Source: a virus (taxonomy: Duplodnaviria; Caudoviricetes). From it: a DNA stretch of 64,000 nt. How positions within the stretch are numbered: the first letter of the stretch is position 1; every line of letters begins with the position of its first letter. Shown here piece by piece: positions 23,822 through 50,555 of the stretch. Both the position numbers and the translations under genes were made by a program. Under the pieces are notes generated by a model. That model was not told the origin of the DNA. It saw only the letters and a list, made by a program, of their open reading frames with translations, and made no database searches. The DNA lies in IMG/VR virus record IMGVR_UViG_3300029288_000138, positions 19,618-83,617 of that record; one strand, 5' to 3'.

Positions 23822-23927
23822 GGCTACTGTGGCGAAATGGAAACCGCAAGACCTGAACCCGTACCAGTAGAATATCTACTGGTGTATCTAAAGCGGCAAT
23901 GCAGGTTCGAATCCTGTCAGTAGCCCA
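23822..23927 (+). ncRNA. tRNA-like RNA 1 with non-canonical central domain
   Basis: GGCTACTG/CAGTAGCC acceptor, GCG/CGC D-stem, perfect T-arm GCAGG-TTCGAAT-CCTGT; 53-nt centre with hairpin ACCAGTAG/CTACTGGT and no 7-nt anticodon loop. Confidence 0.75.
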
Positions 23928-26709: not shown

Positions 26710-26781
26710 TGGGCAATAGTTTAATGGTAAAATCCCGGTCTCCAAAACCGATAGATGAGAGTTCAAATCTTTCTTGCCCGG
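26710..26781 (+). tRNA. tRNA-Trp(CCA)
   Basis: CGGT-CTCCAAA-ACCG; discriminator G. Confidence 0.9.
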
Positions 26782-26859
26782 CAATAAATTTTTTCTTCTA
26801 GGCGCTATATTTATTTATGGATAAATAAAAAGATATAACTATAACTAGGAGAAAATAAA

Positions 26860-31017: not shown

Positions 31018-31320
31018 AGGTGGGTATCTCAACTGGTAGAGACACGGTCTTTAACTAAGGAGCTTTATATTGGAAACAGTATAAATGAAAGAGAATGATA
31101 TCGGTGAACCCTGTAAAATGGCAATACCGAGGGAATAGATTTTTTAATCTAGCCCGTAGAGAGCAGATAATTCTCAACCTAAGTTATATTTTTGTAATAT
31201 GGTTAAGATGTGCTCCAGACTACAAACAACTTTTAGTTGGTGGTGAAAATCATAGTAGTATGCAAAACCGTATCGGGCCTCCAAAGCCTGGGCATGCGGG
31301 TTCAACTCCTGCCCCACCTG
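31018..31320 (+). tRNA. Intron-containing Trp-type tRNA with UCA anticodon (opal decoder) plus a second CCA anticodon-like arm
   Basis: Acceptor AGGTGGG/CCCACCT-G73; D-arm TCTC/GAGA; exons join as ACGGT-CTT|CAAA-ACCGT; then AT-CGGGC-CTCCAAA-GCCTG-GGCAT; T-arm GCGGG-TTCAACT-CCTGC. Confidence 0.85.
31052..31262 (+). mobile_element. Self-splicing group I intron (211 nt, IC3/tRNA-Leu(UAA)-like, no ORF)
   Basis: P1 CUU paired with GAG guide (U.G at the splice site); P2 TTTATATTG-GAAA-CAGTATAAA; P3 GAGAAT/ATTCTC; P4-P5 TCGGTGAACC..GGCAATACCGA; P6 GGG/CCC; P7 GAGCA/TGCTC; P8 AACC/GGTT; P9 region ACTAC/GTAGT with GAAA loop; terminal G 31262. Confidence 0.9.
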
Positions 31321-34600: not shown

Positions 34601-35365
34601 ATGAAAAAGAATGACGTTAGTGTTTCATTGGCAATTAATGGTAATTTGCTAAAAGAAAAAGTTATTAATAGTATTCCAACATTTCATCTATTAGATGACA
34701 CAGAATTTGCATTAGTTATAGACAATATGTCTAGAACCAAATATGCAGTGGATGTAATAATAGATGGAAAAAATCAATCTCATAGATTAATACTAAGAGA
34801 AGGTGAACATGTTAATCTAGAAAGATGGTTTGAGGATAATAGGAAATTCAAATTTGTTACATATGATGCTTTAAAGAATAATCCAGGTATTGCTAATAAT
34901 GGAAACATTACTTTAAAGTTTTATAAAGAACGAGTAGATCAACCTGTAATTACTTATACTCGATGAACTCCACAATATTATACTAATACTGGAACTATAT
35001 ATCCATTGTCTTGGCCATCAACTGGTGATTTCGTTTCATGCGCCACCGCTGGCAACAAAACGCGTTGTGTTGCCAGCAACACAACGGGTGGTTCTATTCA
35101 ATTAGTTAATAATGCACTATCAGCTGATACTATAAAAACAGGCAAAACTGAAATGGGCAATATTTCTAATCAAGAATTCAATACAGATTATTTTTCTACT
35201 TTTGAATATTTCCCTTCATTTGAAATTAACATGAAATTATTACCAGCAGAGGTTGCTCATTACGAATATAAAACAACTAATGATACAAGAGTATACTGCT
35301 CAGAATGCGGTAGAAAAATAAAAAATGGTTGAAAATATTGTGCTGGTTGCGGAAAAAAAGTATAA
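34601..35365 (+). CDS. hypothetical protein with C-terminal double zinc ribbon; TGA 34964 and 35330 read as Trp
   Basis: Two track ORFs in one frame; YCSECGRKIKNG*KYCAGCGKK has Trp at the usual position. Confidence 0.85.
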
Positions 35366-45461: not shown

Positions 45462-47057
45462 ATGACTGATAAAGAACTCATAAAACAAGAAATAATAAAG
45501 TGCTCATCTGATTACACGTATTGTTTAAAGAAATACGGTAAAATAGTAATACCAGGTAAAAGCAAGGTACCATTTGAACTATGAGATTTTCAGCAAAAAA
45601 CGTTAGATCTATTCCAGGCAAATAAAAATATTATCATATTAAAAGGTAGACAGTTAGGACTATCAACACTAGTTGCTGGATTTATTGCTTGTGAATTGAT
45701 ATTCAAAGAACACTATCAAGCCTTAACTATAGCAACTAAAATGGGAACTGCCATTAATATAATTCGTAAGGTTAAAACATTTATAGGCGGATTTCCACCG
45801 TGAATGAAAACTGCTTTAAATGCCAATCCAATTACAGATAATGCTCAATCAGTTGAATTGTCAAATGGCAGCTTTGCAAAATCAGAAGGAAGATCAGAAG
45901 ATGTTGGTAGATCAGAAGGCTTATCACTATTAGTGTGCGATGAAGCAGCATTCATTAGAAATATGGATGATATATGAGCCGGTGCATCAGAAACATTATC
46001 TACTACAGGTGGCAAAACAATAATTTTGAGCACACCTTGTGGCGTGGGAAATTGATTTCACAAAATGTACACAGATGCAGAAGAAGGAAAAACCGGATTT
46101 TTATTTTTAAAAATTCCTTGATATATGCATCCAGATAGAGATCTTAAATGAAAAGACGAAAGATTAAGAGCATTAAAATATGATATTAGAAAATTTGCTC
46201 AAGAGCACGACTGTTCATTTGAATCCTCTGGTAAAACTATTATACCTGGTACTAAAATAAAAGAGATTTCTGACAAAACTAGAGACCCGTTAGAGGTAAT
46301 AGGTAGTGAAAAAAATATGTGAGTATGAAAATGACCACAAGAAAAACATACATATATTGTATCCGCTGATTCGGCTACTGCGGGTGGAGAAGATTATAGT
46401 GCATTTCATGTACTAGATTTAGAGACGTGTGAGCAAGTAGCAGAATACCAAGGCCATATATCCCCAGCTGATTTCGGAGATATGTTGGTTAGTATTGCAT
46501 CTAGATATAATGAAGCATTATTAGTAATTGAAAATAATTCACTGGGCATAGCCACAATTCAGCCAGCTATAGATAAAGAGTATAAAAACTTATTATGAAC
46601 TTTAAAGGGTGGATTAGAATATATTGATCCAATCAAAAATCCATATATGATGGATAATAGAACTACTACCCCCGGCTTTGCAACTACTAGAAAAACTAGA
46701 CCTCTAATGATACAAAAGTTAGAAGATTATTTGGGTGATGATTCCTTAATTATTCACTCAAAACGATTTGTTAATGAATTATGAACATTTGTATATGAGG
46801 GCGGTAAAGCTCAAGCAATGGGTTCATATCATGATGACTTAATTATGGCAATGTGTATTGCATTATGAACTAGAGATACTGTTTTGAAATTAAAATCAAT
46901 AAATGATTCGTTTGATAAAAGAAGAAATGATTGAATGTTTCAGCAGCAATATAGCAGTTCAGAGGCGTTGTATACAAATACAAAGTTATTTAATGACCCA
47001 TATAAAATTAATACGGGGTGATTTGATGAAGATATTAGATGATTAATAGAAAAATAA
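45462..47057 (+). CDS. terL: Terminase large subunit; 15 in-frame TGA (hand count) read as Trp
   Basis: PFEL*DFQ, ILKGRQLGLST, GRSEGLSLLVCDEAAF, STPCGVGN*FH, nuclease SADSATAGGEDYS, IENNSLG, YHDDLIMA; entirely absent from the code-11 track. Confidence 0.93.
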
Positions 47058-47072
47058 ACATAAGAGGAAATA

Positions 47073-50000
47073 ATGGCAACTGATAACAAATTATTTTTTA
47101 GTAATTTAAAAAAATTATTTAGTACTGGAACTATAGTCAGACAGATTGGTAAAAAACAACTGGTTGTAAAGGATTTAGATTCTAGACAAGCTAATTTATC
47201 AAGAAGACTATATGACAGATATAATAGATTATTCCATTCTCAATATACCACAAAATCATACTTATCAGGCTGGAGACCCGGTCAAACAGTCGATCGAAGA
47301 ATGAGGTACTTTGATTATGAATGTATTGCAGGTAACACTATCATTAGTACTCCGGCTGGTAATTTTACTATAGAAGAACTGTCAAAAATATATCCTGACA
47401 AATATACAAAATTTATCGTTTACTCATATGATACAAAAAATCAAAAAATAGTATTTGGTACAGCCCATTCCGCTAGAAAAACAAAAACAGATATGACATA
47501 TAAAGTAAAACTGTCTAAAAATAAAGAGATAATTGCAACTGCGGATCACCCAATTTTAATGAAAAACGAGGAATATAAAACTATAGGAGAATTAAAAGTA
47601 AATGATGAAGTAATGTCATTCGATAAGAATGTTTATCAATATAAAGTTGTTAGCGTAAAACCACATAAAGTTATTGATGTATATGATATATCAGTAAACG
47701 AATATCATAACTTTGCTACTGATTCTATATTTGTTCATAATTGTATGGATGCTGATCCGTTATGTTCTTCAGTTTTGGATGTTTATGCGGAAGAAGCAGG
47801 TTTGGAGGACGAAAGCGGAGAATTATTAAACATCACTTCTGATAATGAAAATATTACTGAAATATTGCATAATTTATTTTATGATATCATCAATTTAGAA
47901 TTCAATTTCTTTCCATGAGTTAGAAACTTATGTAAATACGGCGATATGTTCTTAGCCTTGGAAATTTCTCCAGAGTATGGTGTAATAAATGTATATCCAT
48001 TTTCTGTATATGAAATAGAAAGAGAAGAAGGAGTCGATGAAAAAAATCCAAATGCAGTCAGATTTATTTTAATGGGAAATAGACAAGAGAGTTTGGAAAA
48101 TTATGAAGTAATACATTTTAGATTATTATCAGATACAATCTTACTTCCGTACGGTCGTTCAATATTAGAACCAGGCAGAAGAATTTGAAAACAATTGCAA
48201 TTGATGGAAGATGCAATGTTAATCTATAGGATAATGAGAGCACCAGAACGAAGAATATTTTATATTAACGTTGGAAATTTGGCAGCTAATGACATAGATA
48301 ATTTTATGCAAAAGGCTATATCTAAAGTAAAGAAAACTCCAGTAATAGATTCAAGTACAGGTGAATTTAATTTACGATATAATGTTATGCCTGTGAAATG
48401 AGATACAAAGATTCCTTTATTAGATGGAAGAAGTATTACTATAAAACAATTATCAGAAGAATATAATAGTGGAAAAGAAAATTGAGTATATTCAATTGAC
48501 AGAGAAAACAATAATAAAATAGTACCAGGAAAAGTAACTTGGTGCGGCTTAACAAGACCAGACGCCAAACTAATACGAGTAACTTTAGATGATGATGGGT
48601 ATGTTGATATGACACCAGACCATCCAGTAATGTTAAGAGATGGCAATTATATTGAAGCACAACAGTTAAAAGTTAATGATTCAATTATGCCATTTTATAC
48701 AAAACTGAGTATAGAGCCGGGCATCAAAAATTATGAAAAAATATACGATCCATCAAATAATGAATATGAATTTACTCATAGAATTGTATCAAGGGAATTA
48801 AATATTGATAATTATAATAATACAAAAAATATAGTTCACCATCAAAATTTTGTTCGTTTGGATAATTCCCCGGGGAATTTAAATTGCAGTATGAATGCAG
48901 CAGACCATATTAGATATCACGTTAATAATGCAAAGGGGCGAAAAAAACCAGAACATTCAAAATGAATGAAAGAAAATTATATTCCTTATATAAGAACGCC
49001 AGAACAATGCGAAAATATATCTAAACGTATGACCGGCAAAAATAATCCTAATTATGGTAAATCAGTATCCGCGTATACAAGATCTAAACTATCAGCATCA
49101 ATTAAAAAAACAAAAAGAAGTGAAACGTTTAAGAAAAAATATAATGAAATATTTACAGCAGAATATAGAAAATTAATAGGTGAAAAAAGTACAATTAACA
49201 ATAAAGAAAGATGGGCAAACGAAAAATTTAGAAATCATATATGTTTCGCAATGAAAGATAAATTCGATGATTACTTATTTAATAAAATGATTCAGTATAT
49301 AACAATTAATCCAGATACAAATTTAGATAATCTTACAACACTAATGAATAGTAATCCAGAATTGTACGGTCATTATATTGAAATAAATATGAATCGTATG
49401 AAGCCAAAACAATTTCAAAAACATGTATTACAAAGAAGCATTAGAAAAAGATTGGGATTAACTTATAGAGAATTTAAGAAAGAAATTCAGAATAATCAGA
49501 TATTAAATCATAAAGTAAAATCTATAGAAAATATAGAAAATTCTGATGCGTATTGTATGACTGTAGACAAATATCATAACTTTGCTACTGATACATATAA
49601 TAGTAATACCAGATCTGGTATATTTGTTAAGAATAGTATTGCGGAAGATTTTTTCTTTCCTGTTCGCGGGGGAGAAGATAATCCAACAAAAGTTGAAACA
49701 CTACCGGGCGGACAGAATACTGGAGACATAGAGGATGTTACGTATCTTCTTAGCAAACTTTTTTCCGCTTTCAAAGTCCCAAAATCATTTCTTCAGTACG
49801 AAAGCGACGTTTCTGCAAAGTCGACACTCGCAATCGAGGACATTCGTTTCTCTCGTTCAGTTGAGAGAGTTCAAAAAATTATCGAAGCTGAATTGACTAA
49901 GATAGCAATTATACATCTATATAGTCAAGGATTCAGAAATGAGGATTTAATCAATTTTGATTTAAAATTAACTAGATCATCTACTCTAAGAGAACAGCAA

Positions 50001-50555
50001 AAACTAGATTTGCTCGATAAAAAAGTATCAATGACAAAATCTTGCAGAGAGTCTGAGAGTCTTAGTATGAAATGAATATATGAGACCGTTTGGGAATTTT
50101 CTGAAGATGAAATAAAAGATATCGAAGATGAAATTATTAATGATAAAAAGACTATGTTTAGAATGGCTCAGATACAGGATGGTGGGAATGACCCAGCAAT
50201 TACAAATAAAGTCGTTGATACTAGTAATACCGCTTCAGATAATAATTCAGCATCTAGTGGTTCTAAAGAAGATACTTCAACTAAAAGTGCTGATAAAGAA
50301 GTAGGATTCGATTGAAATGATGAAAAAGATAGTAATAAAGAAGAAAGAAATAGTAATGTTGGATTTGATAATAAACGAGTAACTGGTTATGCTCCGACCA
50401 TATCTGCTGCATATTTATCCAATATAGCAAAGAAATTTAATATAACAGATAAAAATATTCGTACTAGTAATGGCATGAATTTATTATCTGAAGGGTATGG
50501 AGAAAAATTGATAGATAAAATAGATGGAATACTAGAAAACTCAAAATTATTATAA
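47073..50555 (+). CDS. Portal protein (T4 gp20-like) with two inteins; TGA read as Trp
   Basis: DYE|..|CMDADPLCSSVLDVYAEE; FP*VRNLCKYGD; RRI*KQLQLMEDAMLIYRIMRAPERRIFY; EDFFFPVRGG...ETLPGG; FKVPKSFL; EDIRFSRSVERVQ. Confidence 0.92.
47322..47741 (+). mobile_element. Mini-intein (140 aa, class 1)
   Basis: C1 IAGNT; block B ATADHP; block F VYDISV..YHNF; C-terminal VHN/C. Confidence 0.92.
48390..49634 (+). mobile_element. Atypical intein (415 aa) with HNH/NUMOD-type homing endonuclease
   Basis: Begins PVK*DTKIPLLDG; TPDHP; THRIVS...VHHQNFVRLDNSPGNL; AYCMTV..YHNF; ends FVKN/S; excision restores RYNVM-SIAEDFFFPVRGG. Confidence 0.88.

Follow-up and report, generated by a model that had tools for sequence, protein, structure and literature searches.

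The window analyzed here is a 64,000-nucleotide stretch of an 83.6-kb IMG/VR virus record (29% G+C, estimated completeness 42%). The tRNA array of this record comprises 22 genes according to ARAGORN, and within the array lies a tRNA gene with two tandem anticodon-type arms, the positions of which are given in Table 1. Run with default settings, ARAGORN misses this gene. Its first anticodon arm, with the anticodon UCA, is split by a 211-nt insert and is formed only once the insert has been removed. A further call, a 104-nt "tRNA-Phe(gaa)" that contains a 14-nt insert, is made at 23823-23926 of the window once ARAGORN is allowed to consider introns.

Table 1. Positions of the two-armed tRNA gene, its parts and two related genes, in window coordinates
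Feature	Position	Strand	Sequence or remark
Two-armed tRNA gene	31018-31320	+	Between tRNA-Asp and tRNA-Gln of the tRNA array
Exon 1	31018-31051	+	AGGTGGG TA TCTC-AACTGGTA-GAGA C ACGGT CTT
Acceptor stem, 5' strand (exon 1)	31018-31024	+	AGGTGGG; perfect pairing with 31313-31319
D arm, preceded by U8 A9 (exon 1)	31027-31042	+	TCTC-AACTGGTA-GAGA; 4-bp D stem
C26 (exon 1)	31043	+	
UCA arm, 5' half (exon 1)	31044-31051	+	ACGGT + CTT
Intervening sequence	31052-31262	+	211 nt; no ORF; ends in G; between U34 and C35 of the UCA anticodon loop
Exon 2	31263-31320	+	CAAA ACCGT/AT/CGGGC CTCCAAA GCCTG/GGCAT/GCGGG TTCAACT CCTGC/CCCACCT/G
UCA arm, 3' half	31263-31271	+	CAAA + ACCGT; spliced loop CUUCAAA, anticodon UCA
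Linker between the two arms	31272-31273	+	AU; 0-7 nt in relatives
Second arm	31274-31290	+	CGGGC/CUCCAAA/GCCUG; loop 31279-31285 is the tRNA-Trp anticodon loop; CCA at 31281-31283
Variable-loop-like linker before the T arm	31291-31295	+	GGCAU, 5 nt; 2-5 nt in relatives, usually NGGU
T arm	31296-31312	+	GCGGG-TTCAACT-CCTGC; 100% paired across the homologue alignment
Acceptor stem, 3' strand, and discriminator	31313-31320	+	CCCACCT + G73 (31320); CCA end not encoded
Ordinary tRNA-Trp(CCA)	26710-26782	+	Separate gene, same phage
Large terminase gene (TerL)	45462-47057	+	15 in-frame TGA, no TGG

Structure and identity of the two-armed tRNA

The spliced RNA is predicted to fold at minimum free energy (-33.7 kcal/mol) as a five-arm cloverleaf, which agrees with the first-pass annotation of this DNA, where a UCA arm and a CCA arm had been read in tandem from the letters of a single tRNA. 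The mature two-armed RNA would measure ~92 nt, or 95 nt with the CCA end, and the joined exons are reported by ARAGORN as a tRNA-SeC(tca) of 95 nt. When the CCA arm is removed in silico, the same program returns a 76-nt tRNA(tca); when the UCA arm is deleted instead, it returns a 76-nt tRNA-Trp(cca) that keeps G73, just as that annotation had stated. The body is likewise of the Trp type that had been claimed for it, in that one tRNA gene combines A1-U72 and G73 with two tandem anticodon-type arms.

Within the acceptor the Trp identity set of PMC9976931 is present, namely A1-U72, G-C pairs at 2-71, 3-70 and 5-68, and G73. The identity nucleotides C34 C35 A36 are absent from the decoding arm. 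UCA is the triplet of the arm that N26 connects to the D stem, and the CCA triplet is confined to the second arm.

The intervening sequence in the UCA loop

When the conserved 3' end of the insert served as query against viral contigs, 46 loci were returned. Homologous inserts of 183-707 nt occupy the same site in about 45 phage loci. Among the intron-scan loci, the 5' exon ends in GGTCTT wherever it was located and is followed by a variable base, and G is the last base of the insert. Alleles without the intron read GGTCTT-CAAAACC, which corresponds to the joined exons, and two loci with and without a 606-nt insert (L034 and L078, respectively) differ by a single D-loop base. Because homologues and intron-less alleles were compared in this way, the splice borders are fixed.

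The insert resembles a group I intron in that U is the last base of the 5' exon, G the last base of the insert, and the excision site is precise. For five short introns, a consensus fold could be drawn whose conserved helices contain 27 covarying pairs and which also has R/S-like elements (CCAGACUAC ... AUAGURGUA). The Rfam model Intron_gpI (RF00028) had no match in the region, even at E-values up to 10. Judged by these sequence comparisons, the 211-nt insert is a mobile intron, probably of the group I type, that occupies position 34/35. Since this intron interrupts the anticodon loop between U34 and C35, the UCA decoder exists only after splicing. The interruption also accounts for the behavior of the general Rfam tRNA model (RF00005, cut-off 29), which did not match the unspliced window gene; intron-less homologues score 60-61 bits with it.

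Longer inserts carry ORFs with in-frame TGA codons. One such ORF encodes a PD-(D/E)XK endonuclease of family PF11645 (L004, 9880-10347) and another a weak HNH/EndoVII-like protein (L005, 1454-1975), both with in-frame TGA, so translation of the intron ORFs would depend on the very tRNA that they interrupt. Family PF11645 includes I-Ssp6803I of the tRNA-fMet intron.

Reading of UGA as tryptophan

When TGA is treated as a sense codon, ORF coverage is 0.86 instead of 0.68, and the structural regions then contain ORFs of 1,062-2,149 codons. The TGA codons at TerL residues 172, 220, 230 and 469 align with Trp of T4 gp17. A UGA-to-Trp decoder, the need for which had been presumed in the first-pass annotation, is therefore required by the codon usage of TerL, by the four aligned positions and by the opened ORFs. 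In-frame TGA at conserved Trp positions and a complementary UCA anticodon together characterize the two-armed gene as a suppressor tRNA gene, and no other tRNA(UCA) was found in the 83.6-kb record. Because the phage has a separate tRNA-Trp(CCA), the two-armed tRNA is not needed for UGG.

In-frame TGA is almost lacking from the stretch at 22-43 kb, where most of the tRNA genes are located, although one ORF (34601-35365) has two. The Portal_T4 gene (window 47073-50555) contains an intein with a NUMOD3 endonuclease motif and has seven in-frame TGA codons.

With two anticodons in one molecule, dual decoding has to be considered, in which the hairpins would swap place under the D stem and one charged tRNA would read both UGA and UGG. 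Removal of either arm leaves a normal 76-nt cloverleaf, the 5 nt after the CCA arm of the window gene form a normal variable loop like that of an intact tRNA-Trp, and dual reading would be harmless here, where UGA and UGG both specify Trp. However, the separate tRNA-Trp(CCA) is already present, and U34 of UCA can already wobble to UGG, a capacity established in organisms with code 4. The D stem is linked to the UCA arm by N26 alone, which favors the UCA arm as the stacked, decoding arm, and we know of no ribosomal tRNA that bears a hairpin at the 26/27 hinge. Such a two-headed decoder seems to us quite unlikely. As to the two conformers that had been suggested earlier, the predicted pairing implies no secondary-structure switch; the base pairs are the same in both, and the conformers would differ in which hairpin stacks under the D stem.

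Among the other carriers of two-armed genes, G012 and G079 are clearly TGA-recoded and G034 is weakly so. Of the 148 kb of G012, 140 kb were read, and these contain no UGA reader apart from an intron-split two-armed gene. The T4-like TerL of the window has no homologue in the other carriers, which indicates that the tRNA design is spread over unrelated phages. Many related large phages encode a tmRNA beside the tRNA array (L064, L068, L069, L070, L077, L078 and L097). ARAGORN also reports oversized "tRNA-Trp(cca)" genes of 86 nt (L178, 5905-5990) and 84 nt (G079:C1:25326-25409), which may be further non-canonical or two-armed genes in the other register; G079 has a tRNA(cta) as well.

Conservation of the second arm

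Searches with the locus returned no matches, either by blastn against 50,697 phage records or by an exact 32-mer scan of viral contigs, and the neighboring nucleotidyltransferase, used as an anchor, led to no related loci. A Trp-like two-armed tRNA was missing from the prokaryotes searched, one genome each of 185,579 species. The pattern scans demanded a particular UCA stem and T loop. Within the window, the heptamer CTCCAAA occurs at chance frequency (8 found, 8.06 expected).

An alignment of 59 distinct homologous 3' halves from phage homologues was used for covariation analysis. In line with what the first-pass annotation asked of homologues, both the helix and the CCA loop of the second arm are conserved. 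The loop nucleotides T-C-C-A are invariant (59/59), and the stem shows compensatory changes at all five pairs, with 91% of cells paired. Covariation in the stem amounts to 0.657 vs 0.169 in shuffles, none of 500 shuffles reaches that value, and slid controls stay at or below 0.14; the support for this helix equals that of the T arm. A chance hairpin was rejected as a reading of the second arm because the stem covaries and the loop UCCA is invariant among the 59 homologues.

The arm recurs in samples that did not select for it. In an intron-anchored sample with no requirement on arm 2, 22 of 25 distinct 3' exons have a hairpin with the loop N-U-C-C-A-N-N, and the arm is missing in the other three. 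For a second sample, which comprises 77 distinct genes, the UCA arm and the T loop were the sole anchors, and a CCA loop was not demanded. Every non-Sec long-arm tRNA(UCA) with a 7-bp acceptor and G73 in this sample has UCCA in the extra-arm loop (40/40, with L094 assigned by eye after the script had mis-registered its hairpin). The sample further includes ~20 true tRNA-Sec genes (ending ...CCGCCA), none with UCCA, and ~18 genes with a short variable loop and no second arm. The two-armed genes span several clearly different D-arm types and tRNA bodies, the linkers on the two sides of the second arm vary (0-7 nt and 1-6 nt), and its loop, 7 nt in the window gene, has 6-9 nt in relatives. Taken together, the comparisons mark the second arm as no chance structure; it is, by its pattern of substitution, a selected helix with a fixed loop.

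Intron-bearing relatives without a second arm are of three types (L039; L042, L052, L057 and L060; L059). Two of these three types have odd T loops, TGCAAGC and ATCGTCA.

The place of the second arm raises the issue of class II identity. A base-paired extra arm does lie between positions 45 and 48 (a 5-7 bp helix with covariation), but the body is Trp-type and not of the Ser, Leu, Tyr or Sec acceptor families, and TerL TGA aligns with Trp. A class II tRNA charged by SerRS, either tRNA-Sec or a tRNA-Ser-like opal suppressor, would share the long extra arm, G73 and the UCA anticodon, and would suit the ARAGORN label tRNA-SeC. Against this, the acceptor and T stems are 7/5 and the D stem has 4 bp, vs 8/5 (a 13-bp branch) and a 6-bp D stem in bacterial tRNA-Sec. 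The Rfam tRNA-Sec model (RF01852) gives 22.5 bits vs a cut-off of 47, and does so on a mis-registered stretch only, whereas intron-less relatives reach ~60 bits on the general tRNA model. The A1-U72 pair is Trp-like, TGA aligns with conserved Trp, and the true tRNA-Sec genes of the same sample lack UCCA. Identity as tRNA-Sec or tRNA-Ser was rejected on the score below cut-off, the 7/5 arms and the 4-bp D stem, and we assign charging by SerRS a negligible probability.

A parallel amber family

A corresponding design was found for UAG. It consists of a tRNA(CUA) whose acceptor is of the Gln type (U1-A72, G73) and whose extra-arm loop CU(C/U)UGA(A/C), for instance CUCUGAC or CUUUGAA, holds the Gln anticodon. 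About 17 distinct metagenomic sequences (L330-L367, e.g., L336, L333, L349 and L364) belong to this family, and their stems covary; the amber scan demanded a YUYUGA loop, so loop conservation is built into this sample. One viral locus (L309, 2672-2768, minus strand) scores 42 bits with the Rfam tRNA model and adjoins a normal tRNA-Gln(CUG). Three matches of the amber scan (L245, L246 and L288) were ordinary tRNA-Gln genes and were discarded.

Origin of the two arms

Most relatives have the acceptor AGGGGCT/AGCCCCT with G73, and most members share the D arm GUGU-AAUGGUA-GCAC, the linker NGGU and the T arm GUGGG-UUCGAAU-CCUAC. Judged against the tRNA-Trp of B. subtilis, this body is presumably that of a Firmicute-type tRNA-Trp. 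An ordinary tRNA-Trp(CCA) lies within ~0.5 kb in 8 of 14 intron-less loci examined, and several are directly adjacent. By sequence, the CCA arm, NGGU and the T arm together represent the original 3' portion of a tRNA-Trp, and the UCA arm has the appearance of an anticodon arm that was duplicated and inserted after N26. With its 2-nt 5' linker and 5-nt 3' linker around the CCA arm, the window gene is naturally drawn as a tRNA-Trp with an inserted UCA arm. In most relatives, the second arm can be drawn equally well as a flexibly tethered class II variable arm.

An origin by duplication would also be compatible with a neutral relic, in which the tRNA-Trp anticodon arm was duplicated in tandem, one copy changed to UCA and the other was left without function. 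The match of the body, the NGGU linker and the T arm to Firmicute-type tRNA-Trp makes the duplication plausible, and the arm is dispensable in some relatives. Nevertheless, a functionless hairpin would lose its loop sequence, whereas here the stems have been fully turned over with compensation and UCCA has stayed invariant in 59 sequences and on several unrelated bodies. The same design also arose for Gln. We therefore hold a neutral relic to be very unlikely.

Distribution of phage TrpRS

The first-pass annotation had supposed that no new synthetase would be needed, and the two-armed records fit this supposition. A phage trpS (PF00579, TIGR00233) was found in 0 of 65, of which 18 are at least 90% complete. 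Among records with a one-armed tRNA(UCA), 3 of 23 carry a trpS equivalog. An exact calculation on 0/65 vs 3/23 gives ~0.016, a contrast that is suggestive only, because the records are related to one another and hence not independent. When phage TrpRS served as the anchor of a scan, all tRNA(UCA) genes nearby proved to be 75-76 nt long. At L157 (1350-2481), a 76-nt tRNA(tca) lies 70 nt upstream of a trpS equivalog, and at L158 (1336-3814) trpS is followed by a Lon protease gene.

The one-armed records also lack trpS in 20 of 23 cases. This, together with the three intron-bearing relatives that have no second arm, argues that the arm is not the sole route to charging. Nor is it indispensable, as those three relatives and 17 other tRNA(UCA) genes do without it.

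Proposed function of the second arm

We propose that the two-armed gene encodes a phage UGA-to-Trp suppressor and that its CCA arm would be an identity handle for the host TrpRS that secures charging with Trp, a reading to which we give a probability of about 0.58. Splicing of the intron would yield the UCA anticodon loop and with it the decoder. The first arm would then stack under the D stem and read UGA on the ribosome. The second arm would occupy the place of a class II long variable arm and, as a copy of the tRNA-Trp anticodon stem-loop (N-U-C-C-A-A-N), would present to the host TrpRS the CCA identity nucleotides that have been lost at position 34 of the decoding anticodon. It could reach the enzyme either as a flexible arm or through an exchange of the stacked position between both hairpins.

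GlnRS and TrpRS both recognize the anticodon. This, and the ability of synthetases to bind stand-alone anticodon-like hairpins, is why the second arm is read as an identity handle, and it is the host TrpRS that would read it because the phage has none. The invariant UCCA on covarying stems, its presence in 40/40 genes, the trpS distribution and the CUA/Gln family all fit charging by the host enzyme, and the lack of Trp-like two-armed genes in the sampled prokaryote genomes points the same way. Drawn as a variable arm, the second arm has its loop away from the usual contact between TrpRS and the anticodon, so unusual docking or a rearrangement would be needed. The variation in linker length speaks against one rigid geometry and suggests a flexible tether. 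It is from comparison that we infer both the role of the arm in charging and the way in which TrpRS would reach it. Tryptophan identity in E. coli and B. subtilis depends mainly on the anticodon, G73 and the 1-72 pair (PMC9976931). Weighing against a need for the second arm, a tRNA-Trp(UCA) is tryptophanylated in E. coli according to literature cited in Borges et al. (10.1101/2021.08.26.457843).

Another protein that reads the tRNA-Trp anticodon loop could have selected the same feature. The second arm would then serve as a handle or decoy for a modification enzyme, for a host anticodon nuclease that it soaks up, or for a tRNA-Trp sensor. Any loop-specific protein would select for the whole loop N-U-C-C-A-A-N, which is conserved along with a G-C-rich stem; the MiaA context A36-A37-A38 is present in both loops; and large tRNA sets with a tmRNA are typical of phages that counter host attack on translation. 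Yet the ordinary tRNA-Trp(CCA) nearby in most carriers already offers the same loop. Furthermore, the Gln counterpart tracks the reassigned amino acid, as charging predicts, and the arm is missing exactly where a phage trpS is present. A reader other than TrpRS is in our view unlikely.

A different fate would be removal of one arm after transcription, which would leave an ordinary one-armed tRNA(UCA) or tRNA-Trp(CCA). The gene already undergoes one excision at the RNA level, but at neither arm is there a second intron-like element, a bulge-helix-bulge motif or a conserved flanking signal, and genes without the intron keep both arms. Conservation of a 17-nt hairpin would also be unexplained if it were discarded. 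We judge such processing to be highly improbable.

The identity handle may be one instance of a general trick among stop-recoding phages, for which we would offer even odds. A suppressor tRNA would carry a portable copy of the cognate anticodon stem-loop (CCA for UGA-to-Trp, CUG or UUG for UAG-to-Gln) and would be charged by the unmodified host synthetase despite a decoding anticodon that this enzyme would otherwise refuse, so that decoding and identity are split, with a possible exchange of arms. If the proposal is true, the second anticodon arm is a one-molecule answer without a new synthetase and a new way of separating tRNA identity from decoding. In the window, the decoder is additionally gated by the splicing of a mobile intron. 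For synthetic biology, the corresponding design rule would be that an identity hairpin grafted into the variable arm makes any anticodon chargeable.

Relation to known systems

Phage suppressor tRNAs, long variable arms and tRNA group I introns are already known. In our literature search, with some of the sources available only in part, no published description of a variable arm that copies the cognate anticodon loop was found.

Group I introns are known from bacterial tRNA anticodon loops, including those of cyanobacterial tRNA-Leu(UAA), tRNA-fMet and Azoarcus tRNA-Ile. The phage inserts are similar in that they follow U34, have a 5' exon ending in U and an intron of ~200 nt ending in G, and optionally carry homing-endonuclease ORFs, including PD-(D/E)XK PF11645. 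They differ in having no Rfam Intron_gpI match and in having a phage suppressor tRNA as the host gene.

In class II tRNAs (Ser, Leu, bacterial Tyr and Sec), the long variable arm is an identity element whose size and orientation matter, and its loop has 3-5 nt of non-conserved sequence. The long arm of tRNA-Tyr is contacted by TyrRS, which is homologous to TrpRS. The two-armed tRNA shares with this class an extra helix between the anticodon arm and the T arm, and also the role in synthetase recognition that is proposed here. Unlike class II arms, its loop of 7 nt (6-9) is sequence-invariant and copies an anticodon loop, and it is built on a class I tRNA-Trp body.

The phage of the window resembles the code-4 phages of Borges et al. 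(10.1101/2021.08.26.457843; Nat Microbiol 2022) in its low GC content, in the concentration of in-frame TGA in structural and late genes, in a tRNA with a UCA anticodon, in a host presumed to use the standard code and in intron endonuclease ORFs that themselves contain TGA. The second anticodon-like arm and the suppressor intron set the present gene apart from the code-4 description in that work. The same work reports that a suppressor was detected in only 35% of code-4 phages, leaves open how host synthetases charge phage suppressors and voices the suspicion of non-canonical tRNAs. Charging of phage suppressors in standard-code hosts is thus an open question of the authors of recoding surveys themselves. 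Many code-4 phages may have seemed to lack a suppressor because genes such as the present one are labeled tRNA-SeC or, if intron-split, are missed.

Phage code-change modules combine a tRNA(UCA) with a phage TrpRS, as described for the Jade phages (Borges et al., 10.1101/2021.08.26.457843) and for the AP1 and HF2 pairs (Seki et al. 2025, PMC12636597). The two-armed tRNA addresses the same problem, namely the attachment of Trp to a tRNA that reads UGA. The modules rely on their own synthetase and on one-armed tRNAs, whereas two-armed tRNAs occur in records without trpS (0/65).

Anticodon-like hairpins that are bound by synthetases have been described in mRNA leaders, including the E. coli thrS operator and the yeast mRNAs for AspRS, MetRS and HisRS (PMC9976931, PMC6542539). 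These hairpins are read by the anticodon-binding domain, and a change of the triplet switches synthetase specificity (PMC9976931, PMC6542539). They share with the phage arm an anticodon stem-loop that stands outside its usual place in a tRNA, which in the phage would likewise be read by a synthetase. The leader hairpins regulate translation of an mRNA, whereas the phage mimic forms part of a tRNA and would act in aminoacylation.
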